Source: a virus
Taxonomy: Duplodnaviria > Caudoviricetes
IMG/VR virus record: IMGVR_UViG_3300032225_002102
Location: 65,292 to 129,291 of that record
Length of the DNA: 64,000 bases
Direction: 5' to 3' (one strand)
Part shown: in pieces, positions 40,351 through 64,000 of the stretch
Layout of the letters: the number at the start of each line of letters is the position of its first letter
Position numbering within the stretch: position 1 is the first letter of the stretch
Position numbers and translations under genes: made by a program
The notes under the pieces: model-generated
Told to the model about the DNA's origin: nothing
Databases searched by the model: none
What the model saw: the letters and a program-made list of their open reading frames with translations, nothing else

Positions 40351-43300
40351 TTACTCTTCTCTATTTTCTGCAAACTGTTCAAGTTCTTCTTCACTTACTT
40401 TTGTTTGAGTAGAAGCAGAGTTTTTATTTAATAGTTTAGTGTAATTAAGTTGTTGATCTAAATCTCCAAATCTATATAGTTGGTAAAGAGGTGAGAATAC
40501 AGATTTCATTAGTTTTCTTTCTATCTTTAAATCTCCTTTCTCATATCCTGCACCTGATTTAGCATATCTATCATCAAATTTTAAATTAAAATCAAACCCA
40601 TCATCATAATTAATATCCCACCCAAATAGTTGTGAAAGTAATCCTGTATTAGTATCAAACTGTCTTGTTAAAGCAAATGGATCTTTTACTTTTCTTGCTA
40701 TATAATCTAAACTTGAACTTGGTGAAGAAACAAATAAAAATTGTCCTGTATCATTAGTATATCTTGCAGTAAATAATTCTAATGCTTTAAGTATTTCACT
40801 TTTTTCTTCTTCATCATCATCGTTTAAAGCATGAAGAAATAATCCTAATAATGTTGCTCCTACTAAAAAGGTTAACTCGGAAGAAGCTCTAATTAAAGCA
40901 ATTCTTTTATTTTCATAATTATCATATTCAGAATTACCATATAACCATTCGTTAAATTTTTCAGAATTTTTACTTAGATTAGAATAACTTATTCTATCTG
41001 CTACAAATCCTGCTTGTTTAGCAATTACTTCAAATAATCCATAACTTAATGCACCTATTCCTTTTTTAGATATAATTGTTTTTATGTATCCTTTTAAAGA
41101 ATTATCTTTTTTTATTCCTACACTTATTTCAGCTAATGCTTCATTAAATTTTGAAAATATATTTGTAACAAATTGTCTTTGATAACCATCATCTACAAAT
41201 TCACCTGCTAATCTAACAAATTCAGATTTACCATATCTTACTTTTAATGAAGGATAAATCCAGTTAGAAAACACCATTGCCATTGATAATAAAGAATCAC
41301 GTTGTATTTCAGATTTAGAATATTTAGAATATTGACCATGTGCTAAATAATTTGCTGCTTCTATATTCCCTAATACTTTTGTTAATATTTCTATTTGTGC
41401 TGCTTCATCATTTTGTGCAATACCTGCCTTTTCCCAATTAAACTCAAATATCTGACCATCTTTTTTTTCAATTATATCTCTTAAATTAGTATCTCCAACT
41501 TTAAATCCTTTTAAAATAGCTAACATTAATGGTACTTGATTAGCATGTTCTGCTAATGAAGTAGATAAAAATAAAGTATCATAACTTAATACTCTATTAG
41601 ATAAAGATTTAGGAATTACTTGTCCTCGTAAATCTACCATATCTCCTTTAATAGCATCAAAAAACCATATTAATTGTGTAATTTCACTTTGATCATTAAT
41701 ATTTGTTTTAGTAGAATCTATAATAAAGTTATGAGTATTTTTCCAATATTCTGTTCCTGCATCACTTAAAATCTTTTCTGATAAACCAAATTTTTTACCT
41801 TGAGCAAGTAAAAAGTTATTAGTTTTTCCTGTAAGTAAGTTAGAACCAGAAGCAATAATATTATTTGCTAATACTTGAAAATTAGCTAATGCTTTTAATG
41901 TGTTTGTTATTTGTCTAACTGATAAACCACCCAAATTATAATCTACTGAAGGATCTCCATATATAAAATTATTGCTAAATTGAACTAATGCTCTTGCTGA
42001 ATTTTCTCCTACTTTTCCAAATAATTTATTTTTTGCAGCTGCTAACATAGTTTTATTAGAAGCTTCAACATTTACTTTTCTTGATGGTATTCCAATTGCA
42101 GTATCTCCTGCAAATAATGTTTTTAAAGTTAAAATCATAGGTTCTAACTGCTTCTTTTTTTCATAAGCTGTAGTAGAGGAATCAAATAAATGTAATGCAA
42201 GAAATAAATTTTCTTCTGTATCTTCATAAGAAACAGGAGAAGTATTTGTTGGATAAATTGATTTATTTAATTGTCCTGAAAGATATTGTTTTACTCTATA
42301 ATGATCAGGTTCATCATCTCTCAATATTCTATTAAATCTATCTGCTCTTACCATTTTACCTTCATCATTTTTTATCATAATGATTTTAGTATTTTCTTCT
42401 TTAAATTTAAATCCTTCAACATATTTAATTGTAGAATTACCTAATGCAGAAAGTCTTTCTAAAGCTGTTTTAGGATCTTGTTTAGCTATATTGATTAAAT
42501 AATGTCTTAATCTTTCTGTACCTAATCTATCATTTGATTTTTTATAACCTTCAATTAATTGATTATAATATTTTTTCATATTATCATTTTTACTCATTTC
42601 CTCAGATAAAGATTCCCATTTAGAATTTTTATTTATTGGAACTTGTAAATTACCAGAATATTTAAATATAGATACTATATCTAGTTCTTTCCATGAAGGA
42701 TCATTTAAATCTATAATTTTATATTTAAACTCTTCTTCTTCTTTAATCTTTACTAATAATTCATTACCATTAGAAACATAATCTTTTAGATCTTGTAAAT
42801 CAAATGTTCCTTCTTCAATTAGTTTTTTTAATCCACCTTTATATAACTTTCTTTCGTAAGTATTAAACCTAAAATAAGTATTACCGTTTTCATTTAATAA
42901 TTCTTCTAATTTACTCCATTCAGTTGTTTTACTTAATAAAGTATCAATTGCATTATCTTTTGATTTTAAATTTCTATAAAAAAAATCACTATATAATTTC
43001 TTTTGAATATTATCTTTAACTTGTGAAGGAGCAGTTACATTTGGATTAAATTGATCTTTTATATAAGTTTCTCCTCTTGAATTAGTATAAGTAATATCTA
43101 ATGCATTAGTATAGTTTATGGTATCATAAATATCATTTATTTTATCTATATCACCTTCTCTTATTATTCTAAATATTTCATTTACCGTTTTAGGTAAATC
43201 CATTACAAAAAGTTTTTGTTTAATTACAAATTCTCCTTTATTATACTCTGTTACAAAAGCTTTTCCTCTTCTTATTTTATATTTATTAAAAACACCTTTT

Positions 43301-45192
43301 TTATTTTCTTCTAACTCTATAAAATTACCTAATGCAATATCTTCTTCAGTAGCTAATTCTAATTCATCATTTTCTCCTATATATTTAATTTCTTGTACAA
43401 ATTTTCCTTCCCATTCTTTTTTTTGTTCTGATTCAAGTGATATACCTGCATCTGCTAATCCTAAATTAGCTTTTTGTAATGCAATTCTATTTTCTGTTTC
43501 TCCTTTTAATAATTCTCTTTGAACTAATGTTGCTGTTAATCCTAATATTGCATCATCATATTGAGTAGCTTGTTCAAACCATCTATCTGTTAAATCTATG
43601 TCTCTATTTGCTTCTACAAGTAGTTTTCTAATTGTAGCTTTATCAGCATAATACATTGATTTATTTGAATTTAATTTATTTTTTTCTGCTAATAAAATTA
43701 TTTCATTAATAGAATCTTTTGGTACATTCCTTGTTTCTAATACTTTTCTAAAATGAGTAAAAAAATCATCTTCAGGTAATACTTCTATTCCATTAATTTG
43801 AAGTACTTTATCTGTTAATCCTGCTGCTTCAACTATCTTTATAATGCTAGGATCTGTATTATATAAAGATACTCTTAAATCTGATTCAAATATTTTTTCT
43901 TTTGTGTATAATTCTTTACTTTGTCTATCTAAAATTTCAGATATAAAGTCTAGTTGTAACTGATAAGATTCTTTTTTTAAATTAAAAATTGTTTCGTATG
44001 ATTCGTTTATTGTAGCTAAAATAGATTTAGATTCTCGTTTAGAATCACTTTGTATTTTTAATATTTTTTCAAATAAATTATTAACTTCTTTATTTTCATT
44101 AGTAAACTTATCTCTTATTTTAACAACTAAATCTTGTAAATCACCAATAGCTGTATCAGAAAAAATATCTTTTAACCATTCTCTATTTTCTTTTTTAGTG
44201 TTTTCTGGAAATTGCTCCTCAACTAATTCTAATAAACCCATTTCAAATTGATAAGTATTTGTATTTTCCCAACTTGATTTATTTTTATTTGTTTTTTCAT
44301 AAAATTCTTCTAAAAAAGAAAATATGTGTTGCAACTCACGAAATTCAGTAAAAAACTCTCCAATAAATTGTTGTTTTTTTGAAAAACTGTTTTTGTTTGT
44401 TTCTGATTCTAATTTTTTTACTGCTTTTTCAATATATTTAAATTTATAATTAATTTTACCTATTATATTATTAGCGGTAATAATCATTAAAGATAAATCT
44501 GAAATTCTTTCCATTGATTCATCTTTTTTAATTTTATCTGATAATATTTTTAAATAATTTAATTGTTTATAAAGTTCATCTCTAAATTTAAGATCTTTAT
44601 TATTTCCATATTGAGTAAAATTAAATTGAAATTCTTCTACATCTTTACTTAACTTATCTAGAACATCATTAAGTATTTCTCCTTGTTCTTCATCAGTAGC
44701 ATAAACATTAAAAATATTTTCATCTATATTAAATGGAGGTACTAAAAAACTTTCTAAAACAGATTGTAAATCTTCTGCACGTGTATCTTTAATTAATCTA
44801 TCTACATCTTCTGGAGTAGATTGACTTAAATTAGCATCTTCTAATACTCTAACATCAGTAATTACTACATTTTTAATAGTATTTGTTCCAATAGTAACAT
44901 CATCTACATAAACAGTTCCTATTAGTTTTGTTCTATTTAAATGATATTTTTTATTAATTTCATTTATAAATTTTAATTGCTCTTCATTCTTTTTTGGGTT
45001 TTGCGAAAGAAGTAATACTTTTATACCATCACGCATACCTGTAGTAAATAAACCAGAAGCATTTAATTTTGATTTTATATCAATATCAATTTCTTCTAGT
45101 TTAGCAATTGTATCATCCGAGATAGAATCTGGATTTTTATCATTTTCTGATTTTTGAAAATTCTGTAAATATGGTATTGTGCAAGTTGACAT
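40351..45192 (-). CDS. Large virion cargo/ejection protein (last of the crAss RNAP-associated set), C-terminal TM
   Basis: Synteny with RNAP; AANY.AHGQY segment; TM LTFLVGATLLGLFLHAL followed by DDDEEE; single Cys at position 4. Confidence 0.7.
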   Translation of the reverse strand: MSTCTIPYLQNFQKSENDKNPDSISDDTIAKLEEIDIDIKSKLNASGLFTTGMRDGIKVLLLSQNPKKNEEQLKFINEINKKYHLNRTKLIGTVYVDDVTIGTNTIKNVVITDVRVLEDANLSQSTPEDVDRLIKDTRAEDLQSVLESFLVPPFNIDENIFNVYATDEEQGEILNDVLDKLSKDVEEFQFNFTQYGNNKDLKFRDELYKQLNYLKILSDKIKKDESMERISDLSLMIITANNIIGKINYKFKYIEKAVKKLESETNKNSFSKKQQFIGEFFTEFRELQHIFSFLEEFYEKTNKNKSSWENTNTYQFEMGLLELVEEQFPENTKKENREWLKDIFSDTAIGDLQDLVVKIRDKFTNENKEVNNLFEKILKIQSDSKRESKSILATINESYETIFNLKKESYQLQLDFISEILDRQSKELYTKEKIFESDLRVSLYNTDPSIIKIVEAAGLTDKVLQINGIEVLPEDDFFTHFRKVLETRNVPKDSINEIILLAEKNKLNSNKSMYYADKATIRKLLVEANRDIDLTDRWFEQATQYDDAILGLTATLVQRELLKGETENRIALQKANLGLADAGISLESEQKKEWEGKFVQEIKYIGENDELELATEEDIALGNFIELEENKKGVFNKYKIRRGKAFVTEYNKGEFVIKQKLFVMDLPKTVNEIFRIIREGDIDKINDIYDTINYTNALDITYTNSRGETYIKDQFNPNVTAPSQVKDNIQKKLYSDFFYRNLKSKDNAIDTLLSKTTEWSKLEELLNENGNTYFRFNTYERKLYKGGLKKLIEEGTFDLQDLKDYVSNGNELLVKIKEEEEFKYKIIDLNDPSWKELDIVSIFKYSGNLQVPINKNSKWESLSEEMSKNDNMKKYYNQLIEGYKKSNDRLGTERLRHYLINIAKQDPKTALERLSALGNSTIKYVEGFKFKEENTKIIMIKNDEGKMVRADRFNRILRDDEPDHYRVKQYLSGQLNKSIYPTNTSPVSYEDTEENLFLALHLFDSSTTAYEKKKQLEPMILTLKTLFAGDTAIGIPSRKVNVEASNKTMLAAAKNKLFGKVGENSARALVQFSNNFIYGDPSVDYNLGGLSVRQITNTLKALANFQVLANNIIASGSNLLTGKTNNFLLAQGKKFGLSEKILSDAGTEYWKNTHNFIIDSTKTNINDQSEITQLIWFFDAIKGDMVDLRGQVIPKSLSNRVLSYDTLFLSTSLAEHANQVPLMLAILKGFKVGDTNLRDIIEKKDGQIFEFNWEKAGIAQNDEAAQIEILTKVLGNIEAANYLAHGQYSKYSKSEIQRDSLLSMAMVFSNWIYPSLKVRYGKSEFVRLAGEFVDDGYQRQFVTNIFSKFNEALAEISVGIKKDNSLKGYIKTIISKKGIGALSYGLFEVIAKQAGFVADRISYSNLSKNSEKFNEWLYGNSEYDNYENKRIALIRASSELTFLVGATLLGLFLHALNDDDEEEKSEILKALELFTARYTNDTGQFLFVSSPSSSLDYIARKVKDPFALTRQFDTNTGLLSQLFGWDINYDDGFDFNLKFDDRYAKSGAGYEKGDLKIERKLMKSVFSPLYQLYRFGDLDQQLNYTKLLNKNSASTQTKVSEEELEQFAENREE

Positions 45193-45193
45193 A

Positions 45194-46921
45194 TTATATA
45201 CAAGCTATGTTTATATTGTAATTACTCGGATCTATTGGTAATCTTTCTTCTTGATTTATTGAGATATTTAAATTATCATCTTTACTATAGTTTAAATTTC
45301 TATAACCTTCATAGTAAAAATTAAATTTATCTGATGAACTATATATAGGTTTAAAAGCTTTCCAGTCAATAAAATCTTTATCTCTTCCCATCATAAGTTT
45401 TGCTTTCATTATTTCTTTCCATAACTTAAAATAGTTCTCATGTTCTTCTTGATTTGGTGTTAATCTCACAAAAAAATCTATAACATATCCTGTATCTTTT
45501 ATCCAATCTCCTTGTTTATGATCTACAGTTTTAGTTTCTTCTATTATTTCAATTTCTTTTGTAAAAAAATTCTTTTTTCTATATGATACTGTTTCTGTAT
45601 GTTTTCCATCTTCACTATAAAATTCTCCATTTATTACTCCTTGTATTGTAAGACTTTCCATAGATTTATGTTCTCCCCCATAAAAATTGTTTATTATTTT
45701 ATAAGTGGGATATTTAGCTTTAAATTTTTTAAAAAAATCTTGTCTTTCAATAATAGGAAGAATTAATTCATTACTTTCTTCTTTAAAAGAATTTTGTTTT
45801 GATTCTATTAATTTTAAATCTTCTTTATTTATTTTTTCAAAAGGAATTACCCAATCTATATCATGTAAATTTTCTTTTTCTGTTCTATAAACAGTTCCTG
45901 CTTTTCTTAAAGCTAATGAGCCAGTAAGAACAATATTTAATTCTTTTTGTCCAAAATTAACTAATTCTTCAGCAAAAGAATCTGTTTTAATTGTAGGAGT
46001 ATATTGTTTTAATATTTGTGAATCTTTTAATTTATAATCAAAATAATCATAATTTTGATTTAAAATCTCATCGACAATAGATAATGATAAATTATTTAAT
46101 TTTTGTTTTTTCTTTATGTTATCTCTATTAAAATTTTCTAAAAATTTTTCCAACATTTTTACAATAGTATTCCATAAATCAAAATCATCTTTAGTCCAAG
46201 ATTTATCATTTATTTTTTGAAATTCTTGAGGATTATTATAATGGAGTATTATTTGTTCTTTTAAATAATCTATAATAACTAAATCTCTAATTTTATTTTT
46301 CCATACGGTTTTATCTTCTATAAATCCTTCTTTAGATTCAATTAAGTTACTATAATATTTAAATCTTTCAGAATATTTATCCCATTTACTTATAAGGTAT
46401 CTTAAATCACTTCTAATTTTATTATTTTTTTTACCTAGCATAGAATATGCAAAATATGCTACTTCAGGTAAAATACTATTACCTTTTTCATACGCAATAG
46501 ATTTAGTTATTAAATCAGAAGCGGAATAAGCATCTAATCCTAATTCTTCTTTTAAATTATTATACTCAGTATCTGTAATTCCAAAATCTTTTAGAAATCC
46601 ACTTTTTAATAAATTTTCTAGTTCATTTAAATTTTTACTTGAAACATCTGATTGTAATACTTTATTATTAATAGAATCAATTTCTGTAAAAACTTCAGTA
46701 TTAGGTATAGCTACATTATTTCTAACTTGGTATAAATTAACATCTTTACCAAGTTTATTTGAAGCTAATAGATCTAATTCTCTAATAGCTTTATAAAAAT
46801 CATTGTTTGATATTTCATAAGATTCTTCTAAAAATCCATGAGCAACAAGTTTGTTTTTTGTTGATATTTTAGAATTATTAGGTATTTTATTGTATGTTAT
46901 TTCACATTTGAATATGCTCAT
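45194..46921 (-). CDS. Virion cargo protein with Pol-beta-superfamily nucleotidyltransferase domain (likely start 46921, TAATG overlap)
   Basis: IVLTGSLAL...LHDIDW, third Asp in VIDFF, K..MGRDKDFID. Confidence 0.75.
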   Translation of the reverse strand: MSIFKCEITYNKIPNNSKISTKNKLVAHGFLEESYEISNNDFYKAIRELDLLASNKLGKDVNLYQVRNNVAIPNTEVFTEIDSINNKVLQSDVSSKNLNELENLLKSGFLKDFGITDTEYNNLKEELGLDAYSASDLITKSIAYEKGNSILPEVAYFAYSMLGKKNNKIRSDLRYLISKWDKYSERFKYYSNLIESKEGFIEDKTVWKNKIRDLVIIDYLKEQIILHYNNPQEFQKINDKSWTKDDFDLWNTIVKMLEKFLENFNRDNIKKKQKLNNLSLSIVDEILNQNYDYFDYKLKDSQILKQYTPTIKTDSFAEELVNFGQKELNIVLTGSLALRKAGTVYRTEKENLHDIDWVIPFEKINKEDLKLIESKQNSFKEESNELILPIIERQDFFKKFKAKYPTYKIINNFYGGEHKSMESLTIQGVINGEFYSEDGKHTETVSYRKKNFFTKEIEIIEETKTVDHKQGDWIKDTGYVIDFFVRLTPNQEEHENYFKLWKEIMKAKLMMGRDKDFIDWKAFKPIYSSSDKFNFYYEGYRNLNYSKDDNLNISINQEERLPIDPSNYNINIACI

Positions 46922-49900
46922 TATTGACAACCTTTAGTTTTTAAAATTTCTAATTCAGATTCTATTTGTTTTTTATTGTTTTTTAAATTATCATAAGGTG
47001 TTTGCCAAGTGTTAGGATAATTTAAAATAAATTCTTCAAGATTTACTACAGCTTTATCATCAGCAGTTTCTTCTCTATTAACCATTGCATAAGCTGCTCT
47101 TGCTAAAGTATCGTATGACATACCATCCTTTCTAATATATGCTCCATTAGTAGCAGTACTACGTTTGTTTTTATCAATTAAATTATCAAATGATTCAGGT
47201 TTTATTCTTCCACCATTTTTAAAATAACGATAAAAAATACCATCTGTTGTATCTAAAAACGTTTCTAATCTAGCTTCAACTTCTTGTAATTCTTGAAGTA
47301 ATTTTAATTGTTCTTGTGAAATATCACCTACTACTTCACTTTGAGTTCCTTGTATATTACTAGTTTCTGTACTTACTACTTTAAGTTCTTCTCTTACTTC
47401 CATTAATAACTTAGGAAATTCTTTACCCCATTTAGTTTTATCTTGGGTATGAGTAAGAGTAGCGTCTCCTGTTGCTAAAAGTTTAGTTAGAGCATTTGGA
47501 TTTTGTTTAAATGAAAGAGTAAGAATATTTTTCATTATTCCTGATGAATCTCTGTCCCACGTAGCTTGTGATAAATCAGTTATTTTTCTACCTAATGCTT
47601 TTGCTTGAGAACCTGAAGCATTTTTTAATTGTTCTACTATTTTAAGATTTTCTTTACTAGCAGGTGTATTTAATAAAACAGCATTAGTAAACCAAATTTT
47701 CATTGCTTGGAATGCTCCTTCAGGTGTTCTAAAAGTTTGATCTCCTATTGTTACAGGTCTTTCAGCAAAATTACTTAATTCAGCATTTTCTCCTGTACCT
47801 GCATAAATATTAATTTTATTACTTTTATCTACTACACTTGCTGGTTGAGCTTGATTAATATTTGGATTCTCCCATTTAGTTACATCTGGATTAATAGTAG
47901 AATCTGTATTTTTAAATCCTAATTTATTTAATTCATCATGTATCCAACCTTCTCCAAGTTTATTATAACCTTTACCTTTATCAATATAAGATTTACTATC
48001 TAACAATACAAATGCTCCTGAATTTAATGCTTTTACAATTTCTTGAAAAGCTTTATCTCTATTAGTAAAATCTTTTTCTGTATAAGAAGTTCCTCCATTA
48101 ATACTTGCAAAATACGTTTTACCAATTTCATAAACACTTGGATTTACAGGTGCATTTCTATTTTGGTATTGTTCTGCATAAAATTCTGTACTACTATTAT
48201 TTCTTCCAAATCCAATAAATCCACCATTAGCTCTTTCTGATTTAAAAGGTGCTTTTTCTGCATCAATTTGAACTTTTGTTTCTACTTTAAAAGGTTTGAA
48301 ATTAATATTTACGTTAGAATTCCAATCATATTCGTTAATCAAATAATCAAGTGCTGTTGCATGAGTAGCATAATTTTTTTCTTCATAATATCCAATAGGT
48401 CTGCCTTTAAGTTCACCATTTTTAATATTATTGATTATTAAATTTCTATATTCTGCTGTAGCACTTACTATATCATAATTATTTCCTGTAATTAACCAAT
48501 CTATAAATTTTTTAGTAGCTTTTATACCTTTTTCTTTTGCTGTTCCAGTTTCTTCTTTTATATCAAAAGGATTTCCTATTGTTACAGGTCTTTGAACTAC
48601 ACCATTAGATCTAAAATTTTCTGCAAATGATTTTGTACTATTACCTCTATAAGCTACAATTACTTGATCTCCGTAATTTGCTTTAAACTCAGGAAAAAAT
48701 TCACTCCAAAAAGTTTTACTATTATAAACTAATCCTAAATCTTTTGGTAATACAACATTTAAAGATTGTGTTTTCTTTTCTAATTTAGAATAAATTTCAT
48801 CTGTTATATTTTGAATTTCTTCATTTTGATTATTCATTCCTTCATTATAACCTTTATCAAAGTTAGGTGAATATCTATTAGAAAGCAAGTTTTTATAAAA
48901 TTGAATATATCCTGTTTTAGTACCTTCTTGTTCTAATTGATTAATTAAATCTTCTAATTTACTTCTATTTTCTTCTTCTGATTTAGTTGTATCTTTTTTA
49001 GAATTAACTTCTGTTGTAGCTGGAATTAATCCTGCATCTATTGTTAAATCAGTAATTGTAGAACCATAATAAGGTTCTCTCATATAAGTTATTATATTTG
49101 GATCTGGTAATTTACTAAAATCAAGTGTTCCTTCTATTAGTTCTTCATTTGTATTATAAATGCGATAATCATCTCCTGATTGAATAACTGTAAATATAAC
49201 TCTACCATCATTAGTTATTAATTCATATTTTTCAGCATTATCTATTTCACTTTCTATTTCTTTTATTGATAAAGAATAACTTTTTTTACCAATACTTACT
49301 TCAATTTTATTATTAGGAAATATTCTTTTATAAGAAGCTCCTCTATAATCTATATATTGTGGAAGTGTTAGTTTTAATCCATTTCCAGTATCTTTAGTAT
49401 CAACTCCTATTTTTGTATAATCTCTTTCTTCACCATTTTTATTTATTTCTAAATAAAGCGGTGGTTGATTAATTTGTAAAAGATTTGAATCTAATTCTAC
49501 TTTTACATTATTTTGAAATCTATATACTTTTAAAATTTCTGTATCTGGTGAATCTTTAATTTTTAATCTATGTTTTTTATTTTTAATATCAGAAAACCAT
49601 AATGATTTGAATTTTGCAGTCATTACACTTTCCTCTTTTTCTGAAAGTTCTTTAAGTTGTTTAAAATTATCTAATACTTTACTTATTTCTCTAAACATAA
49701 TAGTAGGAAATATTTTACTAATATTATATTGTCTAAATTGTAATCCATCTTTTAAAATAAAATAAGCAAATAAATCTTTAGCAAATTGTTTTTCTTTTTC
49801 ATTTGGAGAAGTGTACATTTCTAAAAATAAATTACGTATGTTATCTTGTTGTGCAGGATTTAATTTAGATAAAGAAGCTAATCTTAAACTATCAAGTGTT

Positions 49901-55900: not shown

Positions 55901-57594
55901 CTTCGAGTAGCTAAGTTAAACCCTCTCAAAGATAATAAAAATCTTTGAACGTGTAATGGTTTAGCTTCAGTATTAAGTATCTCTGATAAAGGCTTATCTC
56001 CTGTTAATTGATTTATTATTTTCTTTTTATTTTCATCAGAAATATCAACTATAACATCTTTTAATAAAGCGTTAATAAATGTTCTAGTATTTTCATTATC
56101 TTGCCTACCTTTAATTTTTTGAACATTTTCATTGTATAATGAAAGTTCAATTAATTTGCTCAATCTTTCATTTTCATTATATGTATTAGATAATTTACGT
56201 ACAATAGCAGAATAAATCATTTTTTCATCTGCTATTTCAAGAATATCTATTTTAGTACCTACTACATCATTTTCATTTATTACATTTCCATCGAGATCTG
56301 TTACTATTGAATCTCTATCCATATAAGCAATAGTTTTTCCAGTATTATCAATAAATAAACTACTTTGTATTTTACCAGTAGTGTTCATTAATATTTGAAG
56401 TTCTTTACTTCTACTTTCTAAAGATTGTTGATTAGCATTTTCATCATAATTTTGTGTTTTACCTTTTTCATCTTCTTCATTTTCATCATTATCAAAAATA
56501 GTTTTATTAGCTTCAATTTGTTCTTGAATTTCTTCAGTTAAATTAGAATCCTTTTTTTCTAATAATTCTAATAAATCAACTAATGTATTTTGTTTTAATT
56601 CATCTTCTTCTAAATTTGCTTGTTGTTCAAGAAATTCAGAATATTTTTCAATAGCTAAATCAATTATTGAATCTTTATTGACTTCTATTCCTTCTGATTC
56701 ATATATGTTTTTAGCTAATACAGCTATTGATTTTTTCATTTGAGAAATCTCATCTGAAGGAATACTTTTGTTTTCTGAATTATAATATAATCTAAAAGAA
56801 GGAATTACATTATCATTATTATTTACAATCTTATTGTTTTTATATTCTCCTCTTGAAATTTTATCGAATAAAGCTAATATTTCTGTTTCGTTTGAGGTAA
56901 GATTAAATAAAGCTTTAATTTTTTCATATAATCTATGAAGTAATTCAGCTACTTTTTGTGCATTTTTACCTAAGAATGAAAGTTTCTTTGTTAAACTATT
57001 TATTCTGTTTTGTGAATATCTATTTGATTTACCTTCTGAATTATAATAATTTACAAAATCTTTTACTATTTCTTCTTCAAAAGCATATTGTTCTAATACT
57101 TCATTACTTATATTAGGAAATTTATTTTGTAATTCTTTAATGTACTCATTAAAAGATTTTTTTTCTGTTTTTAATCTTTGTGTAAGTAATTCTCTACCAG
57201 CATTATACATTAGTGATTTTTCATCATTATCCATTAATGTTTGAATAATAGCATGAAATGCTTCTTCTGCTAATTCGTTTTTACTAATTTTATCTCTAAA
57301 GAAAAATGTTTTTTTATAAAAAGCAGCAGTACCTTGAATATCAAATCCTTTAGATTTTAAAGCATTTAAAGTATCAAACTCATATTGATTTGCTGGTACT
57401 AATTTATCAAGAAAAGATTTAATTTGTTCAATTGAATAACTAGACGTTTGTTCACTTTCAGAATAACTTTCATAATCAGGTAAAAAATATCCATTTTGTA
57501 CAAATACTTTGTACATATTTTCTTTACCAATTGAATCAATCCATTTTTTAACATCAGGATGATTTATATTTAAACATAATGATTTATCAAACAT
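46921..57594 (-). CDS. Virion-packaged two-barrel RNA polymerase (crAss type) with degenerate zincin N-domain and C-terminal accessory domains including NADAR
   Basis: GVRIPSQ and GSDFDIDK (52225-52239, about aa 1786); ADGA; EEAFH; NADAR at 47383-47817. Confidence 0.92.
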   Translation of the reverse strand: MFDKSLCLNINHPDVKKWIDSIGKENMYKVFVQNGYFLPDYESYSESEQTSSYSIEQIKSFLDKLVPANQYEFDTLNALKSKGFDIQGTAAFYKKTFFFRDKISKNELAEEAFHAIIQTLMDNDEKSLMYNAGRELLTQRLKTEKKSFNEYIKELQNKFPNISNEVLEQYAFEEEIVKDFVNYYNSEGKSNRYSQNRINSLTKKLSFLGKNAQKVAELLHRLYEKIKALFNLTSNETEILALFDKISRGEYKNNKIVNNNDNVIPSFRLYYNSENKSIPSDEISQMKKSIAVLAKNIYESEGIEVNKDSIIDLAIEKYSEFLEQQANLEEDELKQNTLVDLLELLEKKDSNLTEEIQEQIEANKTIFDNDENEEDEKGKTQNYDENANQQSLESRSKELQILMNTTGKIQSSLFIDNTGKTIAYMDRDSIVTDLDGNVINENDVVGTKIDILEIADEKMIYSAIVRKLSNTYNENERLSKLIELSLYNENVQKIKGRQDNENTRTFINALLKDVIVDISDENKKKIINQLTGDKPLSEILNTEAKPLHVQRFLLSLRGFNLATRSVYRTEIDIENGWAKVSDVESSSKRNNQKNFWNSNYRELQFKKEFEVYKSEFNDSFIKLENKIKLIKLEQDVIGIATEYNNLLNLLGIDVSGEYLFNFITDLIKGKNAKLLNKQEFVLDTLFAKMKFINDFLKESSDYVEFYEADDLTTENTKLANDDKDFNSFFNFIADGNIEYDERVIETSYKDGNNNSIYLHQNPTFTLKFASGFKSEKDFKKMKEGGVIAIKTDGSVIKSTILDSFKEENPLNDMISINGVLEPKLLEQIKLLTLDTTQIKSYSYKTKDGFLIEKDSEYTEKNILALNDMGAAEYALTNLILLSENAKSVTINGKEYLFVPVSLGHNEASKQIDYLMIPFDKNSYNNKKLSEEAKNHVFKLIKTEYDKIQENHLNLKNQLEELKITDGNEITRNDLYKLKEYQNVYEGYNVGKFTREKLEVETEGIIVSTEYYKAGEEGFKGLKFSPEVEPFINNDLLIAALTGKELNIDDIDFNTVTKFLEEEYQWVKKQGLLDKLPHAFRDKSKGNDTLGKNTTNVELFNPKATTENKLKTALFNYWLGSTMANRMRYGSHNFNFKLTSSEAYKRSRMFAGATLSTKTSIKNESLGIYDSIDQITYAIIEEPLAVSDNDKKNIKHADGAMKSTPKGLRKILHGTTKLTKRVSDLLDKTEQGVDLTPEEWDEMVNSDSFLSALKPLAANGEQAVKVGLNPTLTIKSTSVGTIIQPTSVNGNEFTFDNNIIVVDKYGRTFQTEGNTREIIWDNTNKVFKEWKPRLLDKNLINYSQRMFLNGYRKMQIEGEESIWVYRGKAYEIDTIIPPSALKTSQHNILPFKEILDDNNNVIKKDTDFDFADELNSKYTFANAIDADYFGEQVQNPQGKVKITTPTQNIEILSNELTGDISIKIFDKRGILTKEEKLSADELVKLYEELKKSRNINGKELAVKELFKQVKNEKGEVIKQIPDYKYFFDGLIEGLKLTGGSGQDYEFLATDPITKEPLYNVNIPLNKDKMIQSVVKHFSTGVLSHKVAGNAYVLASDHGVRVLKKLIPIKENGVIVDYTWEVINNKTKGYDQIIIENKPEDLSDLIYDHRDWYLEQKRKEKSKSKKVKQSKTKSKSEFHMYFESPEMQARIANGDEIYFSDSLRYMKKSYIKQGDNYVFNTWVSEAMMPKLNGKQTSIMDSIRFALGVRIPSQDKQSSINIEWVDFLDDTIGNTIVVPKEIVQIAGSDFDIDKVFSTQYEGYWENGEFIKYEDTFQDYKKWIFKSSKAAKLALKEKLTNDPVYNTILEDVKNNKILLKEQRKYLKPYFEILKPEVNRAFDKINELQNSKQELLDRATVLFNRLSGLSENLPDNIKELQTEIKSYYDKLKETKNKEEREILYQEKENLQFELSDAFQDFYKDKKDLNTRDLTAELKANKSTRKSINEQIEYIYKNIEEYKTKNKDFLNNVNFYFELKDKDLLLESQKEFIREKYYEETLKQFDLISTKEEFQEKSKILKKVHKNDFLNNSLNNAVLNNKILDLQRAMLTSDSVLFGDVKNPARGTGDISMDLSLIEDLQENSKIFYSKSKSLEEIEKIYNNGEVEGSVKIVPTLNGYDVYPFQRIINGKETDLLNIEKNKSIPHNSISTHSNYQQGTIIARQGIGIVVNGALVAIVANRIGLSLSSKFKFNYNGNPVKFGYTNHLQERVFSVKNTLTSTTTDEAKEEQLKRHGIKGDDLNVIDLLTSLEFSLDEAIAIVNSKIVKKYKDSVSKNKIESRAEKNKKLTQEEREFNVLVQNLKITNQVNLTEQKIFESLYNDDKDILATYLKVGDMSKEISKLAKLIKGKKGYTKGNLSELTDVITTAVELGLINKDEVTVQISDKNTTNFFNWESLKNSDKALDIKSFVKITEDLVNDNLSQMFIEYESISKKLKNAVLINTNKKDDTDLQSKIEKDVNSFLIIQLLKMNVNPNNSYIIDFLNFNRLNPLSGEENFLDKFFENKSKKGYDLLKHIIGIKGKVNTLKNSETLDSLRLASLSKLNPAQQDNIRNLFLEMYTSPNEKEKQFAKDLFAYFILKDGLQFRQYNISKIFPTIMFREISKVLDNFKQLKELSEKEESVMTAKFKSLWFSDIKNKKHRLKIKDSPDTEILKVYRFQNNVKVELDSNLLQINQPPLYLEINKNGEERDYTKIGVDTKDTGNGLKLTLPQYIDYRGASYKRIFPNNKIEVSIGKKSYSLSIKEIESEIDNAEKYELITNDGRVIFTVIQSGDDYRIYNTNEELIEGTLDFSKLPDPNIITYMREPYYGSTITDLTIDAGLIPATTEVNSKKDTTKSEEENRSKLEDLINQLEQEGTKTGYIQFYKNLLSNRYSPNFDKGYNEGMNNQNEEIQNITDEIYSKLEKKTQSLNVVLPKDLGLVYNSKTFWSEFFPEFKANYGDQVIVAYRGNSTKSFAENFRSNGVVQRPVTIGNPFDIKEETGTAKEKGIKATKKFIDWLITGNNYDIVSATAEYRNLIINNIKNGELKGRPIGYYEEKNYATHATALDYLINEYDWNSNVNINFKPFKVETKVQIDAEKAPFKSERANGGFIGFGRNNSSTEFYAEQYQNRNAPVNPSVYEIGKTYFASINGGTSYTEKDFTNRDKAFQEIVKALNSGAFVLLDSKSYIDKGKGYNKLGEGWIHDELNKLGFKNTDSTINPDVTKWENPNINQAQPASVVDKSNKINIYAGTGENAELSNFAERPVTIGDQTFRTPEGAFQAMKIWFTNAVLLNTPASKENLKIVEQLKNASGSQAKALGRKITDLSQATWDRDSSGIMKNILTLSFKQNPNALTKLLATGDATLTHTQDKTKWGKEFPKLLMEVREELKVVSTETSNIQGTQSEVVGDISQEQLKLLQELQEVEARLETFLDTTDGIFYRYFKNGGRIKPESFDNLIDKNKRSTATNGAYIRKDGMSYDTLARAAYAMVNREETADDKAVVNLEEFILNYPNTWQTPYDNLKNNKKQIESELEILKTKGCQ

Positions 57595-57595
57595 A

Positions 57596-60500
57596 TTACT
57601 TACAGTTAATTGTATATTGTTTTGCTATTTCTTCTACTTCTTTATTATCTATTATTGCTCTAAAATTAGGAATATCTTTATCAGGATTTTCTGTTTTTTC
57701 TTCATAGTTTTTTACTGATATTGTATTAAAATATGATTTAAGATTATCTCTTAATTTTTTCTTTTCTAAAGCTTTAGTATCTGGTGATTTCAACTCTTCA
57801 AATTTACGTAAAATTTCTAATGTATCACTTTTATTTTTAAATTTATCTTGAAGATCACTCCATACAACACCTTCTTTACCAACACCTACATCACTTAAAC
57901 CTGTTAAATTATTCCAACCTAATATTTCTATTTTTTCAATATCTTTTTGTAAATCTTTTAATTCAGTTTCAACAATTTCTTCAAATTGATCTTTATATTT
58001 TAAATAGATTAATCTTTCTTCTAGACTTAAATTAAATTCTGCTTTAGTACCAGATTTTATTTCTAAGTAAAGTTTTATAGCAGTTTCTCTTTCAAATGGA
58101 TCAGGTTGTGCTTTTGATATATTCAATTCCATATCAACAAGATCTTTCATTTCTTGAGTTAAAGTAGCTGCTAAAAAAGTTTGATCTTCAGGGCTAATCC
58201 TTGTTAAATCTATATTTCTTTTTCGTATTTCTTTAAATAGTTCTATAGCTCGTTTTTTATTTGCTTCATTTTCTGCTAAACTATCAATAAAATCTTTTGC
58301 TGGAGCAGGTGGAGCAGGTTTTTTAACAGGATTTTTTGCTTTAGGGTTTTTTGTTACTTTCTTTGCTTTTGGTTTTACAGCTTTTTCAGGTATCAGTGAT
58401 CCTGGAATAATTGTTCCACCTTGCTTTTCTTTAAACTTTAATCTAAAACCAACATTTTGAAATACTGATGTTTCATTATTTACATTTGGAATTGAATAAG
58501 TACCATCTAATAATTTAGTAGGTGTAGCAGCTATTTTTTCTATAATTGAAAAATTATGAAGTTGTTTTAAAAATTTTGAATAAGGTAAAGTTTTATCTTT
58601 TTCTAGTTTCTCTTTAAAGCTTTTAGCTATAAAAGGTTGTCTATTAGGTTTAAATTTTCCAGATAATAAATCTGCCATTTCATCATAAGTTACATTATTT
58701 AAATAATAATCAACAGATGTTTTAACTCCATCTATATAATAAAACACTAAAAATTTAACACTATAAGATTTTTTTCCATCATCATCTTTTTCAAGAATAT
58801 CTATCTTAATACTATTACCTTCTTTATTTTTATCATAAGCAAAAAACAAATATTTATTTTTTATATTTTCAACAACACCTGTTGTTAATTCACGACTATC
58901 TTTATCAAAAAGTTCATTTTCTAAATTTAAATTGTTTTCAATATCTATAGCTCTAGCATTATATTTTCTTAATTCAATATGTTTAATAAATATTTCTCCT
59001 GATTCAGTACTAAATATAGTAAAGTAAGTACCTTTATCTATTAAAATATCATAAAATGTAGGAGTTTTTTCTTTTAATTGATCTAATTTATTTTTTATTT
59101 GTTGTTCATAGTATTCAAATTCTTTTATTGTAAATCCTTCAACATTTTCAGGAATTATTCTACCATCTTTTTCATCAATTTGAAATATAGGATTTTTCCA
59201 TTTACCAATATAGTTAAATGATAAATCTTCTGTAAATTTAGTCTCTCCAAATTTACCTTCTTTATTAGGATTCATTCCATTCGCATAAGGATCAAGTTCA
59301 TATAAAGATTTGAATGCATTTAACATTTTTGAATCTTCTGTATTATAAAGAGTATCGTATTTTTCTTTTTGTGTTTTTAGAATGTTTACAAAATCTGTAT
59401 AATTTTCTCTTAACTGTAATAGTGGTTGTGTTGTTGTTTTTTGAGTTATTTCATTATATACTTCTACTGATATTTCGTTTAATAATTTATATAATGTAGG
59501 ATCTAAAAAAGAATCAATTGCTTCTAATAAAAATACTGCAGTTGTATATTTAGATAATTTTGCAATTATTTCATCACGATTTGGTAAATCTTTAAATAGT
59601 TCTTCTTGATATGATAAAATAAAAGGTACATCTATATATAAATTTTCTGGAGATTGAACTAACATTAAATAATTACCTTTATCATCTGTAATTTCAATTC
59701 CATTTTCTGCTGTTTTTCTTGCTAAAGCTTTATCAAATTGAAGATTAACAATAGTTCCTCGAATATCTTTTTTAGGTAATATTTTATCTATTTTTCTTAA
59801 TTTTAAAGTATTTAAATCTATACTAGAATCAGGATTTGTTAGTTTATCTTGAATTAAATTAGAAATTAAACTTACATGAGTTTTAAAAACTTCTTCATTT
59901 TCTTCAATATATTCAACTTCATTATCTTTATTTGTAAAAATAATACTTTCTAAAATTTTTGATTTTATACTACCTTTTTTAGTATAATCTTCTATAGGAA
60001 TATTATCTTCTGGATTAGCAACTTTTTTAGCTTCTAAATCATTTAATAAAGGTTTTATAATTACATTGTATCTTCTATATATTTTATTATATTCTTTTAA
60101 TACTTTTTCTGATAATTTTTCTTTTAATAATTTCTCTTCGTCTATAATACCATCTTTTTTAAATTCATCAATATTAGGAATTATTTTTCTTAATTCTTTT
60201 AGTTCTTCTTCTCGTAAATAAGTTATTTCTTTTACTAACTCTTCTATTGTTTTATTAGAAGGAGTATTTTGTAATATTAATAATTCTTCATCAATATAAT
60301 TATTGTAAAGATACCTATTCGTACCATTTAGTAATTCTTCTACTGTAGCATCTAACGGTATTATTTCATCAACATCATTGTTTACTTCATCTTCATCAAG
60401 TCTTTTTTTCCATTTATCATATAAATCTTTTTCTATAACTTTATATATATCACTTTCAATAGTTGTTAAATCATCTGTTATCGCTATTAGATCTTTTAAA

Positions 60501-63500
60501 TTATTTAATCTAATTATTTTACGATCTATATCAGTTTCATTAGGTTTTATATTGTTTAAAACAACAACTAACTTATTATTCTCATCATATTTTAATTTAT
60601 ATATAAATGGTTCACTACCAAATTTTACCTTTGATGGAATTGGTTTAAACTTTTCTCTATCTTTAAAACTATCAAATTTACCTGTAAAGCTTTGTAATTT
60701 ATAAGTTATAGGAATAACAATAATATTTATATCAGGAACATATCCAAATGTATCTTTAAATAATCTTGAATAAGCGGTTTGTTGTTTTGTCCATTTTTCT
60801 TGATAAGATTCTCCATAACGTTTAGATTCTATACTATCAATTGTTGCTTTTGATGAATTTTCAGATTTAGTTTTAAAATCATATATATAAACTTTACCTT
60901 TACTATTTACAACAACCATATCTAATATTCCTGCAATACCATCCCATTCTCCATTTTTAAAATCAGAATGTACAAAAATATTATCTGTTATAAAAACAAG
61001 ATTATTATCTTTTAAATCTATTTGTATTTGTTTTTTTATAGCTAAAAATCTTGTTTTACTCCCTTCAAATAAATCTTTTACATCTATTTGTGATAGTTGA
61101 TTATAATCTTTTCTCTTTTTTAATTCATTTTCAAACTGTTCTTGAGTTAAATTAGGATTATTATAATATAATCTAGCAAAAGTATCAAAATAGTTACCAA
61201 CAACAACAGCGTTCATTAGATTAGTTACTGTATCTGTATTATCAAAAATATCACCTTTTTGAAAGAAGTTAGTAACTCTTTGATATAATTTACCTAAAAA
61301 AGAATAATGAGATTCTTTAACTTTTTCTGGTTTTGTTAACGTTGCTTTTATTAATGCTTCATCTATTAGAACTGCTTTTTTTCCATCTTCTATTAACTTA
61401 TTTATTTTGCTAATAGAATCTATTTGTTCTTTAGTTAATTTAGCATTTCCATTTAAACTATTATTAATATCTTCTTCGTTAGCTACATCATCTGCACTTT
61501 TAATTATTTTTTCTATTTTTGCTATTAAAAAATCAATATTTCCTTCGTTATTTTCTCTTAATTTACTTTTTTCTTTTTGATTTTTAAGTTCCTCTTTTAT
61601 TTTTATTAAATCATCTATATATTTTTTTAATTCTAAATATTTAGAATCATTTTTTAATACAGTAATATTTTTAAGTTTTCCATTTATTTCTATTATCTTT
61701 TTTTCAATTACTAGATTGCGTAAATACTCTTCTGAGCTTGGGATGTTATCAAGAATATTTTGTGCTATTTCAAAGATTTGATGGAGTAATTTTATATTTT
61801 CTTCCTGAACTTCATTTAAATCTTTTTCATCAATTTTAATTAATTTATTATATCGAGGTTTTAAATATTCAAGTGCTTTATTAATTTTTTCCAAATCATC
61901 TTGAGTTGGATTTAAACCAACATTTTCTAAACTATTTTTAAACGTTAATAAATCTTCTTTAAATTGTAAATCTTCTTCTGATCCTTTTTTCTTTAAATTA
62001 TTTTCTTTTTCTTTTATAAATTGTGCAATATTTTTATCAATTAAATCTTTATATTCTTGAAGTTCAGCATTTTTTAATTGAAGTTCTTTCATACCTTTTA
62101 TGATTTCATTATAAAATTCTGAATCTTTAGGTAATCCTGCTTCACTCGCTTTTTGAAAAAAATATTTTATCGCTTCATTTTGTTTATTAATTTCTTTCAA
62201 TCCCTCAAAAGAACTTTGAACTATCATTCCTTGAGTTTTATATTTATCAAGTACTTCCTTTAATTTTTCTGAATCAGAATAATTTTGTACTAAATTATTA
62301 TATGTTTCAAGATGATCAGCAAGATTACTTGAAAGTATTTGGTGATCTGTAAATGTGTTAAGTATTTTATCTAATTGGTTTTGTAAATTTAAAGTACTAT
62401 CATCTTGTATTAATTCTAATTGATTAAAAGAAGAAAGAACATTATTTATTAAATCAATTACTTCTTTAACATTCTCACCTTTAAACCCATTTACTTCTGT
62501 TTCTAATTCTGTAAGAGTATCTATTTGTGCTTGTGCTCTTTCAATTAGTTGTTGTGTTTGTTCATCTATTACAGTTTCTTCTCCCTCTTTTACAACAGGA
62601 GTTGCAATTCTAATATCTGATTCAAATTGATTTTTTCTTTGTTTAATTTGATTAAGTAAACCTTCACGATTAGTACCTTGTGTTGCTAACTCTAATGCAG
62701 CAGTAATGTTAGGAGCATTAAAAAGAATTGAGTTTTTAGATTCTAAATCTTTTTTACGTTCCATCATATTTTCAGACATATAACCATGAAAAGCAAACAC
62801 CTTTTTAGCATTTTCATAAAGATCATATTCTTCTGTACCTTTTTGATATTTATTACGGAAAGTAGATAGATTTCTTTTTACTGATTTTTCAACCTTATTT
62901 ACATCTTCAATTACTTTTGAAATATATTGTTGTTTAATTCCTGGAGTTATATTTTCTAATCCAGTCATTAATTTAAATTCATCATCAGTTACATCTTCTA
63001 AAGTAGAAGTTAATTGTTCTTTGAGAATATCACTTTGACCTCTCATTACCATTGGAGCAATAGTATGGAACTTAGTAATATCTTTTAATTTATCAAAAGT
63101 TACTACTGAATTAGTTTCCTCCATTAAACCAGCACCAGTATAAGCACCTCTAACAGCTTCTATTTTAGATTGTAAATCTCCTGTAATAGAGTTTAAATTA
63201 ATTGCTTTCTGAATATCTAAAAGATCTTTTTTACCTTCTTCAATTTGTGAAGTAGTATCAATTCTAAATTGAGAACCTTCTTTCCATTGTCCTGTTAATT
63301 TTTTATATTCTTCACCAAATGTAGTATTATTTTTTGGATCACTTGCTATCTTAGAAGCTTGATATGCTAATTTACTTGTATCTAATCCTTTACTAAAAAT
63401 AGATTGTCCAGTACCTCCCATGATACCTCCAATAATATTTTGTAATCCTTCAGTTGAAATTAACTGTTCTTTAGTTTTATAAAAACTATTTGCTAATCCA

Positions 63501-64000
63501 TATATAGTATCAGTTAATGTACCATCAATAACATCATTAGTACCTTTATTATAAATAGTATTATAATAATTATTAGTTGCTTTATCTACCCAAAATTGAT
63601 AACCTTCTTCTAATCCTTCATTCCATGTTATTGATTTTCCAGTAAAAATATTTTTAGCATAAGGTTGTCCTGTTTCAAGTGCTGTTTTCATTCCTTTTGT
63701 TACAGCATTTTTACTCCACCAATTAGAAGTTAATTGAAATGATTTTTCAAATCCATCTGCTGCTTTTCCAGTATATTTTAAACCTTTTGCTGCTGCTTGT
63801 TCAGATATGCTCATTACATCATCAAACTGCTTAAATATAGAGTTATTAAAAGGCATATTTGAAAATGTAAGTAAACCAAAGTTTAATAAGAATCTAGCAT
63901 CATGTGCTTGTTCTGCTACGTTTTTAATTTTATCTAAATCTGCTCCAGAAGGTAAATAACCATTTTTTTCTTTATATTCTTTAATTTTATCTAATGTAAA
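57596..64000 (-). CDS. Giant virion cargo/ejection protein with PD-(D/E)XK nuclease domain; 5'-truncated by the window
   Basis: Frame is open from 64000 (48 codons before the called ATG); EGLEEGYQ; GIAGILD...IYDFKT...QQTAY. Confidence 0.8.
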   Translation of the reverse strand, partial: FTLDKIKEYKEKNGYLPSGADLDKIKNVAEQAHDARFLLNFGLLTFSNMPFNNSIFKQFDDVMSISEQAAAKGLKYTGKAADGFEKSFQLTSNWWSKNAVTKGMKTALETGQPYAKNIFTGKSITWNEGLEEGYQFWVDKATNNYYNTIYNKGTNDVIDGTLTDTIYGLANSFYKTKEQLISTEGLQNIIGGIMGGTGQSIFSKGLDTSKLAYQASKIASDPKNNTTFGEEYKKLTGQWKEGSQFRIDTTSQIEEGKKDLLDIQKAINLNSITGDLQSKIEAVRGAYTGAGLMEETNSVVTFDKLKDITKFHTIAPMVMRGQSDILKEQLTSTLEDVTDDEFKLMTGLENITPGIKQQYISKVIEDVNKVEKSVKRNLSTFRNKYQKGTEEYDLYENAKKVFAFHGYMSENMMERKKDLESKNSILFNAPNITAALELATQGTNREGLLNQIKQRKNQFESDIRIATPVVKEGEETVIDEQTQQLIERAQAQIDTLTELETEVNGFKGENVKEVIDLINNVLSSFNQLELIQDDSTLNLQNQLDKILNTFTDHQILSSNLADHLETYNNLVQNYSDSEKLKEVLDKYKTQGMIVQSSFEGLKEINKQNEAIKYFFQKASEAGLPKDSEFYNEIIKGMKELQLKNAELQEYKDLIDKNIAQFIKEKENNLKKKGSEEDLQFKEDLLTFKNSLENVGLNPTQDDLEKINKALEYLKPRYNKLIKIDEKDLNEVQEENIKLLHQIFEIAQNILDNIPSSEEYLRNLVIEKKIIEINGKLKNITVLKNDSKYLELKKYIDDLIKIKEELKNQKEKSKLRENNEGNIDFLIAKIEKIIKSADDVANEEDINNSLNGNAKLTKEQIDSISKINKLIEDGKKAVLIDEALIKATLTKPEKVKESHYSFLGKLYQRVTNFFQKGDIFDNTDTVTNLMNAVVVGNYFDTFARLYYNNPNLTQEQFENELKKRKDYNQLSQIDVKDLFEGSKTRFLAIKKQIQIDLKDNNLVFITDNIFVHSDFKNGEWDGIAGILDMVVVNSKGKVYIYDFKTKSENSSKATIDSIESKRYGESYQEKWTKQQTAYSRLFKDTFGYVPDINIIVIPITYKLQSFTGKFDSFKDREKFKPIPSKVKFGSEPFIYKLKYDENNKLVVVLNNIKPNETDIDRKIIRLNNLKDLIAITDDLTTIESDIYKVIEKDLYDKWKKRLDEDEVNNDVDEIIPLDATVEELLNGTNRYLYNNYIDEELLILQNTPSNKTIEELVKEITYLREEELKELRKIIPNIDEFKKDGIIDEEKLLKEKLSEKVLKEYNKIYRRYNVIIKPLLNDLEAKKVANPEDNIPIEDYTKKGSIKSKILESIIFTNKDNEVEYIEENEEVFKTHVSLISNLIQDKLTNPDSSIDLNTLKLRKIDKILPKKDIRGTIVNLQFDKALARKTAENGIEITDDKGNYLMLVQSPENLYIDVPFILSYQEELFKDLPNRDEIIAKLSKYTTAVFLLEAIDSFLDPTLYKLLNEISVEVYNEITQKTTTQPLLQLRENYTDFVNILKTQKEKYDTLYNTEDSKMLNAFKSLYELDPYANGMNPNKEGKFGETKFTEDLSFNYIGKWKNPIFQIDEKDGRIIPENVEGFTIKEFEYYEQQIKNKLDQLKEKTPTFYDILIDKGTYFTIFSTESGEIFIKHIELRKYNARAIDIENNLNLENELFDKDSRELTTGVVENIKNKYLFFAYDKNKEGNSIKIDILEKDDDGKKSYSVKFLVFYYIDGVKTSVDYYLNNVTYDEMADLLSGKFKPNRQPFIAKSFKEKLEKDKTLPYSKFLKQLHNFSIIEKIAATPTKLLDGTYSIPNVNNETSVFQNVGFRLKFKEKQGGTIIPGSLIPEKAVKPKAKKVTKNPKAKNPVKKPAPPAPAKDFIDSLAENEANKKRAIELFKEIRKRNIDLTRISPEDQTFLAATLTQEMKDLVDMELNISKAQPDPFERETAIKLYLEIKSGTKAEFNLSLEERLIYLKYKDQFEEIVETELKDLQKDIEKIEILGWNNLTGLSDVGVGKEGVVWSDLQDKFKNKSDTLEILRKFEELKSPDTKALEKKKLRDNLKSYFNTISVKNYEEKTENPDKDIPNFRAIIDNKEVEEIAKQYTINCK

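Follow-up and report, generated by a model that had tools for sequence, protein, structure and literature searches.

The 64,000-nucleotide window analysed here covers positions 65,292-129,291 of the IMG/VR record IMGVR_UViG_3300032225_002102, a crAss-like phage of the Caudoviricetes, and its minus strand from 40351 to 64000 carries four abutting open reading frames which encode giant, putative virion cargo proteins (P1 to P4, Table 1). We consider it probable, at roughly 60%, that cysteines at the very ends of these proteins form intermolecular disulfide clasps, which would join P1, P2, P3 and P4 into one linear chain in the particle. We refer to their modules as A (gp47-like, P1), B (the RNA polymerase, RNAP, P2) and D (gp49-like, P4), with P3 as a cassette between B and D. 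The evidence for the clasp consists of the cysteine pattern, its conservation, its dependence on the split or fused state of neighbouring modules, and the modular adaptors that carry the cysteines; that a disulfide forms in crassvirus particles we infer by analogy with cyanopodophage A4, the one system in which the bond itself has been seen.

Translation of the four frames (~7,880 residues inside the window) yielded six cysteines in total, each no more than seven residues from a terminus that faces a gene junction. The C-terminal cysteines of P1, P2 and P3 are all penultimate (CK, CQ and CI), and the junctions P1/P2, P2/P3 and P3/P4 read TAAtATG, TAATG and TAAtATG, respectively. A first-pass annotation of the same DNA had named these six codons, their junction-facing and penultimate placement and the abutting genes, all of which were reproduced. 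It had also stated that the last protein of the series has no C-terminal cysteine, and P4 indeed has none after residue 4. The N-terminus of P1 is cut off by the window end, which is also the end of the 129,291-bp record (rated linear and 87% complete), and was read from the full-length form, a 2,448-residue protein (P0059) which another assembly of this phage (131,562 bp) encodes; its only cysteine is the penultimate one, in agreement with the expectation that this free end should carry none. Joining the contig ends into a circle had been tried as another route to the P1 N-terminus and was rejected, as the frame stays open yet the join is wrong (2,305 residues vs. 2,448 in P0059); the N-terminus is without cysteine in both versions. 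The record is not circularly closed, and P0059 departs, over its first ~100 residues, from the sequence with which this contig begins.

The genome has a G+C content of 24%, and cysteine accounts for 1.27% of residues in its 91 other open reading frames (355 in 27,995) vs. 0.08% in the cargo. From this background 99 cysteines would be expected in the cargo block where six were observed (Poisson P ~1e-34), and the chance of all six falling in their own 8-residue junction windows is ~8e-16. Elsewhere in the genome, a cysteine is present among residues 2-8 in 11 of 91 frames and among the last eight residues in 8 of 91. With a cysteine content far below that of the proteome background, the cargo resembles the cysteine-suppressed ejection proteins of the Schitoviridae type.

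Conservation in the clade and across Crassvirales

Fifty proteins match P3, and all the seemingly full-length ones among them carry one cysteine at position 3-6 and a second among the last 1-7 residues; nearly all have no more than these two. Cys6 and Cys574 are invariant in the 40 homologues that were aligned (42-57% identity, with only 39 invariant columns), and three apparent fragments (P0039, P0044 and P0045) have a cysteine only at the intact end. The window's own proteins counted, a single terminal cysteine is all that is present in eight of eight P4 sequences (position 3-4) and in six of six P1 sequences (penultimate). One relative (L014) repeats the entire four-protein pattern, with a P1 homologue ending in ..INCK, a P2 homologue with Cys7 and a cysteine at C-4 (C-n being n residues before the last), a cassette with Cys6 and C-4, and a P4 homologue with Cys3. 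In two further relatives (L008 and L009) a GIY-YIG endonuclease gene and small open reading frames interrupt the chain genes; the interrupting genes encode no terminal cysteines and the chain proteins keep theirs, and L008 encodes an additional link of 131 residues with Cys3 and C-1.

We compared the RNAP block in 12 reference crass-type genomes. In the Steigviridae the three modules are separate proteins: in crAss001 the sole cysteine of gp47 is at C-2, gp50 has Cys5, Cys1334 and C-8, and gp49 has Cys5 alone; in phi14:2 gp078 ends in its sole cysteine, gp077 has Cys3 and C-1 and no others, and gp076 only Cys3 (these GenBank proteins are A, B and D, gp077 being the 'gp66' RNAP of bioRxiv 10.1101/2020.03.07.982082). 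In the Intestiviridae (p-crAssphage, crAss002, cr3_1, cr8_1 and cr271_1) A ends with a cysteine at C-0 or C-1, and the B-D fusion has one at position 3-5 and none at its C-terminus, which holds for crAss002 with the start taken at Met33. The Suoliviridae (cr4_1, cr118_1, cr52_1 and cr114_1) have an A-B fusion without an N-terminal cysteine and with one at C-2 or C-3, followed by a D protein with a cysteine at position 3-6; Dulem virus 42, which is unclassified and has TAG recoded, is arranged as the Suoliviridae, the last residue of its A-B fusion being cysteine and its D protein having Cys3. The outer ends, i.e. the N-terminus of A and the C-terminus of D, are free of cysteine throughout. BLASTP mapping placed the B|D fusion site at ~aa (amino acids) 2600-2800 in p-crAssphage and crAss002, the two fusions computed, and no cysteine was found at the mapped site in the four Intestiviridae fusions listed.

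Judged from these sequences, a pair of C- and N-terminal cysteines marks each A/B/D split site examined, with one ambiguous case, and none is present at the mapped fusion sites. Sole or near-sole terminal cysteines stand on both sides of the three junctions in the window and of more than 25 junctions in the relatives and reference genomes. The first-pass annotation had proposed a search for junction-paired terminal cysteines across Crassvirales as a test of its idea, and the outcome of this comparison favours it, the pairs being conserved, tracking split vs. fused modules and leaving the free ends bare. As the Intestiviridae isolate the A-B pairing and the Suoliviridae isolate the B-D pairing, parsimony supports a neighbour-to-neighbour reading for the three- and four-protein forms as well. 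A further claim, that the subunits are translationally coupled products of adjacent genes, did not survive: crAss001 gp47 is encoded on the strand opposite gp50 and gp49, so the mechanism involves neither gene adjacency nor translational coupling, and the cysteine pattern likewise outlasts the interruption of the chain genes in L008 and L009.

In cr4_1, Cys2180 of gp26 (L005 9999-23474) lies almost exactly at the position of the A-module C-terminal cysteine and may be a single relic of the clasp. Internal cysteines of fused proteins were also considered as relics of junction pairs, and this was rejected, the B|D fusion site lying ~500 residues downstream of those cysteines.

Identity of the cargo proteins and an exchangeable slot

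The RNAP label that P2 had been given proved sound. It has a single DFDID catalytic motif (aa 1786-1790) within the region aligned to crassvirus RNAPs, and this region is the only part of the protein that matches 86 crass-type phage records (tblastn) and nine reference RNAPs (BLASTP, E 1e-8 to 4e-14). The C-terminal extension of P2 contains a NADAR domain (aa 3269-3392, Pfam PF08719, E 1.4e-11), and the domains listed for the RNAP proteins of relatives are NADAR, DUF7831, His_Phos_1 or cpYpsA. This suggests that the injected polymerase doubles as a carrier of polyvalent effectors, possibly including one that reverses ADP-ribosylation. P1 matches crAss001 gp47 (BLASTP, E 2e-5), and P4 matches crAss001 gp49 (E 7e-8) and cr4_1 gp27 (E 8e-11); these matches to A and D homologues are weak but reciprocal, and searches of Pfam and PHROGs returned zero matches for P1, P3 and P4.

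P3 appears specific to this clade and matches nothing outside it: megablast and tblastn against the phage collection, together with a pattern scan of viral contigs, gave no match. An AlphaFold2 model of the protein has a mean predicted local distance difference test score (pLDDT) of 79.5 with a confident core, and scores below 50 at residues 1-19 and 550-575; the low pLDDT of these cysteine-bearing ends fits flexible tethers. The first-pass annotation had called P3 a nucleotidyltransferase, which is plausible for a Pol-beta-type core but not settled. In its favour are G334, S335, D354 and D356, invariant in the 40-sequence alignment and consistent with a G-S...D-x-D signature, and a weak resemblance of aa ~298-545 to Pol-beta-type nucleotidyltransferases, with middling VIA-align Z scores of 5.0-5.7 to MenT1, URT1, Pol beta, CdnC, ANT(2'') and LnuA; against it, neither Pfam nor Foldseek of the model vs. 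the PDB (E <= 0.001) gave a match.

Several of the P3 'homologues' share only the first ~70-93 residues and the last ~25, and their cores differ. The same slot between RNAP and P4 is filled by a 326-aa ART-PolyVal protein in one relative (L013) and by a 638-aa protein in L014. When P3 residues 1-95 were searched against 1.8 billion representative proteins, 27 clusters of 51-2,541 aa were recovered, in all but two of which the match lies at the extreme N-terminus. At least 25 clusters (118-2,541 aa) begin with this adaptor and continue into unrelated cores, mostly without a Pfam family and with ART-PolyVal in two, and nearly all complete members have exactly two cysteines, one at position 6 and one within the last 1-4 residues. 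The P3 slot is, by this evidence, swappable in the clade, an adaptor and a tail, each with its cysteine, bracketing unrelated cores of 118-1,060 aa. Minimal links of 118-131 aa also occur in relatives (L008 8957-9352; P0065), with little between their cysteine-bearing ends, and the 118-aa P0065 corresponds approximately to adaptor plus tail.

Table 1. Features of the window, in window coordinates; cysteine positions are from translation.
Feature	Position	Strand	Remarks
P1, A module (crAss001 gp47-like cargo)	57596..64000	-	Cut by window end; C-terminal 2,134 aa inside
P1 penultimate Cys (..INCK)	57602..57604	-	Kept in 6/6 P1 sequences, including the window's own
P2, B module, virion RNA polymerase with C-terminal extension	46921..57594	-	3,557 aa
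P2 Cys7	57574..57576	-	Same N-terminus with Cys7 in relative L014
P2 DFDID motif	52225..52239	-	
P2 NADAR domain	47419..47790	-	
P2 Cys3556, penultimate (..KGCQ)	46927..46929	-	Same tail in L013
P3, cassette protein, swappable slot between RNAP and P4	45194..46921	-	575 aa; ATG start, same start as homologues
P3 N-terminal adaptor, aa 1-93, with Cys6	46643..46921	-	Conserved ahead of unrelated cores
P3 Cys6	46904..46906	-	Inside N-terminal adaptor
P3 C-terminal tail, aa 549-575, with Cys574	45197..45277	-	Conserved after unrelated cores; predicted flexible
P3 Cys574, penultimate	45200..45202	-	Inside C-terminal tail
P4, D module (crAss001 gp49-like)	40351..45192	-	1,613 aa; last link of the proposed chain
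P4 Cys4, sole Cys of P4	45181..45183	-	One Cys, at position 3-4, in 8/8 P4 sequences
803-aa protein	37439-39850	-	Just downstream of the cargo block
624-aa AAA_24 ATPase	7169-9043	+	LAGLIDADG domain at aa 241-296
127-aa protein	3418-3801	+	Probably a zinc ribbon

Elsewhere in the window, the 127-aa protein has eight cysteines (6.3%), of which three CxxC pairs account for six, in sharp contrast to the cargo, and the 803-aa protein has only two, its aa ~100-350 matching many tail-fibre/minor-tail PHROGs (best E 2e-32). The LAGLIDADG domain of the ATPase lies upstream of the AAA_24 match (aa 390-545) and resembles an intein or a homing endonuclease fusion. Outside the window and upstream of P1, three minus-strand open reading frames of 801, 911 and 478 aa (genome G000 C1 510-2915, 4111-6846 and 15491-16927) encode zero cysteines, and are candidate C1/C2-like channel-forming cargo proteins without terminal clasps.

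Proposed disulfide linkage and its alternatives

We propose that P1-P4 are virion cargo which has been purged of cysteine, with a single one left on a flexible tail wherever an end meets a neighbour. Neighbouring tails would first dock non-covalently, in this clade by means of the ~90-aa N-terminal adaptor and the ~25-aa C-terminal tail, and in an oxidising milieu the docked cysteine pair would then lock as an intermolecular disulfide, giving a linear covalent hetero-polymer P1-P2-P3-P4. With its links only a few residues from the termini such a polymer would be effectively unbranched and could pass the narrow tail channel partly unfolded, the purge of all other cysteines would prevent wrong cross-links, in the host periplasm as elsewhere, and the reducing cytoplasm would open the links and free the polymerase and the effectors. 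The terminal placement and the purge both fit a partly unfolded protein passing a narrow tail and the periplasm. The bond itself we rate as the likelier part of this proposal, and it gains from a structure already solved in which the sequence signature is the same, the gp27-gp26 pair of A4; ejection of the cargo as a single thread and its release by cytoplasmic reduction may follow, at what we judge to be somewhat short of even odds. A search of this genome for a phage thioredoxin, which might serve as redox partner, found none.

Several observations weigh against disulfide clasps. Some members have internal cysteines (Cys1334 in crAss001 gp50 and 5-15 in the Intestiviridae fusions), the A-B fusion of cr4_1 keeps Cys2180 close to the mapped end of A, and the L009 protein upstream of a 2,260-aa link has its nearest cysteine 29 residues from the end. 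C1-like proteins of p-crAssphage (gp47), crAss002 (gp30) and cr52_1 (gp32, Cys9) have a sole near-terminal cysteine with no obvious partner in the RNAP block. The gut lumen is reducing and anoxic, so disulfides may form only after exposure to air. The A4 ejection proteins show no homology to the crass cargo in BLASTP (best E 0.09), so the resemblance is one of mechanism and not of demonstrable common descent. Finally, the cargo is unresolved in the crAss001 reconstruction, and the disulfides described for that particle are located in its tail and gp57 (PMC10172136). The loci of the unpartnered cysteines are L002 4775-7348 (gp47, at C-1), L004 4926-6599 (gp30, at C-7) and L012 5734-7773 (gp32, at position 9).

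The main rival assigns the terminal elements a role in assembly or stabilisation, as in the A4 pre-ejectosome: docking would recruit the proteins 1:1 into the procapsid, the cysteine bond would later stabilise the packed core, and packing would set the order of ejection. The A4 disulfide does belong to an ordered pre-ejectosome ring within the capsid (PMC12002296), six copies of each of three RNAP-associated proteins are the example given by the crAss001 authors of what the cargo zones could hold (PMC10172136), and a conserved 90-aa adaptor far exceeds a mere cysteine tag. We nevertheless regard this rival as unlikely, as it leaves both the near-terminal placement of the cysteines and the purge of all others unexplained, and as disulfides cannot drive assembly in a reducing cytoplasm; it also overlaps the clasp explanation rather than excluding it.

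A different partner for the cysteines is improbable. P2 and P3 carry one at each end and might close head to tail or homodimerise, and the single-cysteine proteins might pair with one another or with other parts of the virion, as the unpartnered C1-like proteins of p-crAssphage, crAss002 and cr52_1 could indicate. Yet the only terminal cysteines of the Intestiviridae RNAP block are those at the C-terminus of A and the N-terminus of the B-D fusion, those of the Suoliviridae block are at the C-terminus of the A-B fusion and the N-terminus of D, a looped protein would thread the tail less easily, and A4 shows neighbour pairing directly (PMC12002296). Marginally less credible still is that the thiols are not in disulfides at all and instead form a metal bridge, take part in other covalent chemistry or bind a non-cargo partner (portal, muzzle or a host factor). 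Such readings draw on an anoxic natural habitat and on a chemistry unobserved in crassviruses; however, each site has one cysteine, the termini listed show no conserved His or Cys nearby, and the same signature is a disulfide in A4 (PMC12002296). That the pattern is a by-product of low G+C (24%), of a nucleotide signal at TAATG-type gene overlaps or of chance is refuted by the 1.27% cysteine in other proteins of the same genome, the statistics of depletion and placement (P ~8e-16), a cysteine offset that varies from 0 to 8 residues, the invariance of the P3 cysteines, and the order-wide persistence of the pattern with non-adjacent or opposite-strand genes and with another code and composition.

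It is an open question how podoviruses get protein in megadalton amounts through their narrow tail, and in which order. If the clasp reading is true, a covalent tether between the virion RNAP and its partners would be a concrete answer to the question of cargo order and would explain the extreme avoidance of cysteine in these proteins. In uncultured crassviruses, the cysteine rule offers a simple way to test for cargo proteins from sequence, and the exchangeable middle link suggests a route by which abundant gut phages could load new injected effectors. More speculatively, and in our view rather doubtfully, the coupling might be general and plug-and-play: any protein bracketed by an adaptor and a cysteine tail could be disulfide-spliced at a set place in a covalent cargo train, which would enter the host as a single thread before the DNA does and be dismantled by its reducing cytoplasm. 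The delivery order of polymerase and anti-host effectors would then be written in the terminal adaptors.

Relation to known systems

No description of terminal cysteines in crassvirus cargo was found in the literature searched. The view of the first-pass annotation that nothing of the kind had been described needs qualifying, as one disulfide in A4 (2025, PMC12002296) and cysteine suppression in N4-like phages (PMC11445570) have been published; it stands for the multi-link Crassvirales rule, which was not found in print, nor were its tracking of splits and fusions and the adaptor-bracketed exchangeable link.

The closest precedent is cyanopodophage A4 (Anabaena phage A-4L), where cryo-electron microscopy shows gp27 reaching into gp26 with its C-terminal helix, which a disulfide between Cys1715 and Cys5 locks in place (PMC12002296, PNAS 2025). 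In the GenBank record of A4, Cys1715 (C-2 of the 1,717-aa gp27) and Cys5 of the 1,114-aa gp26 are the sole cysteine of each protein. As in the cargo described here, two large ejection proteins from consecutive genes each have a single terminal cysteine, the two facing each other, and the third and fourth ejection proteins of A4 are cysteine-free or nearly so. Unlike the cargo, A4 joins just two proteins by one link, with no RNA polymerase involved, whereas here there would be three serial links, an exchangeable middle and an order-wide tracking of splits and fusions; the A4 bond was treated as a local stabiliser of the ring and not as a general rule (PMC12002296).

The virion cargo of crAss001 comprises gp45, gp46, gp47, gp49 and gp50, for which partial unfolding during ejection was proposed and the order of ejection left to 'packing and interactions' (PMC10172136). 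A preprint on the phi14:2 RNAP reported that the virion carries all three proteins and that fusions of them occur in some phages, with no word on cysteine or disulfides (bioRxiv 10.1101/2020.03.07.982082). Mass spectrometry found the A, B and D homologues packaged in the virions of both crAss001 (PMC10172136) and phi14:2 (bioRxiv 10.1101/2020.03.07.982082), and terminal cysteines are unmentioned in either study. The crAss001 gp47/gp50/gp49 and the phi14:2 trio are homologous to P1, P2 and P4 and share their pattern (a cysteine at the end of A, at both ends of B and at the start of D). The window differs from both in having a fourth protein between B and D and a far longer RNAP (3,557 aa) with a NADAR domain.

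Cysteine suppression is known from the genome-ejection operon of the Schitoviridae (N4 gp50, DEV gp71-gp73), where it was attributed to passage through the oxidising periplasm (PMC11445570). As in the cargo, cysteine is nearly absent from giant ejected proteins, a virion RNAP among them, but the Schitoviridae RNAP is a single polypeptide for which no terminal cysteine pairs are reported, and here the depletion is combined with strictly kept terminal cysteines. Polyvalent proteins of phages and conjugative elements, reportedly described by Iyer, Burroughs, Anand, de Souza and Aravind in 2017, are said to be injected multi-domain proteins with exchangeable effector modules. The ART-PolyVal domains in cassettes of the P3 slot and the NADAR domain in P2 recall these proteins, but the exchangeable module is here a separate polypeptide, which we propose is joined to its neighbours by cysteine-bearing adaptors instead of a peptide bond.

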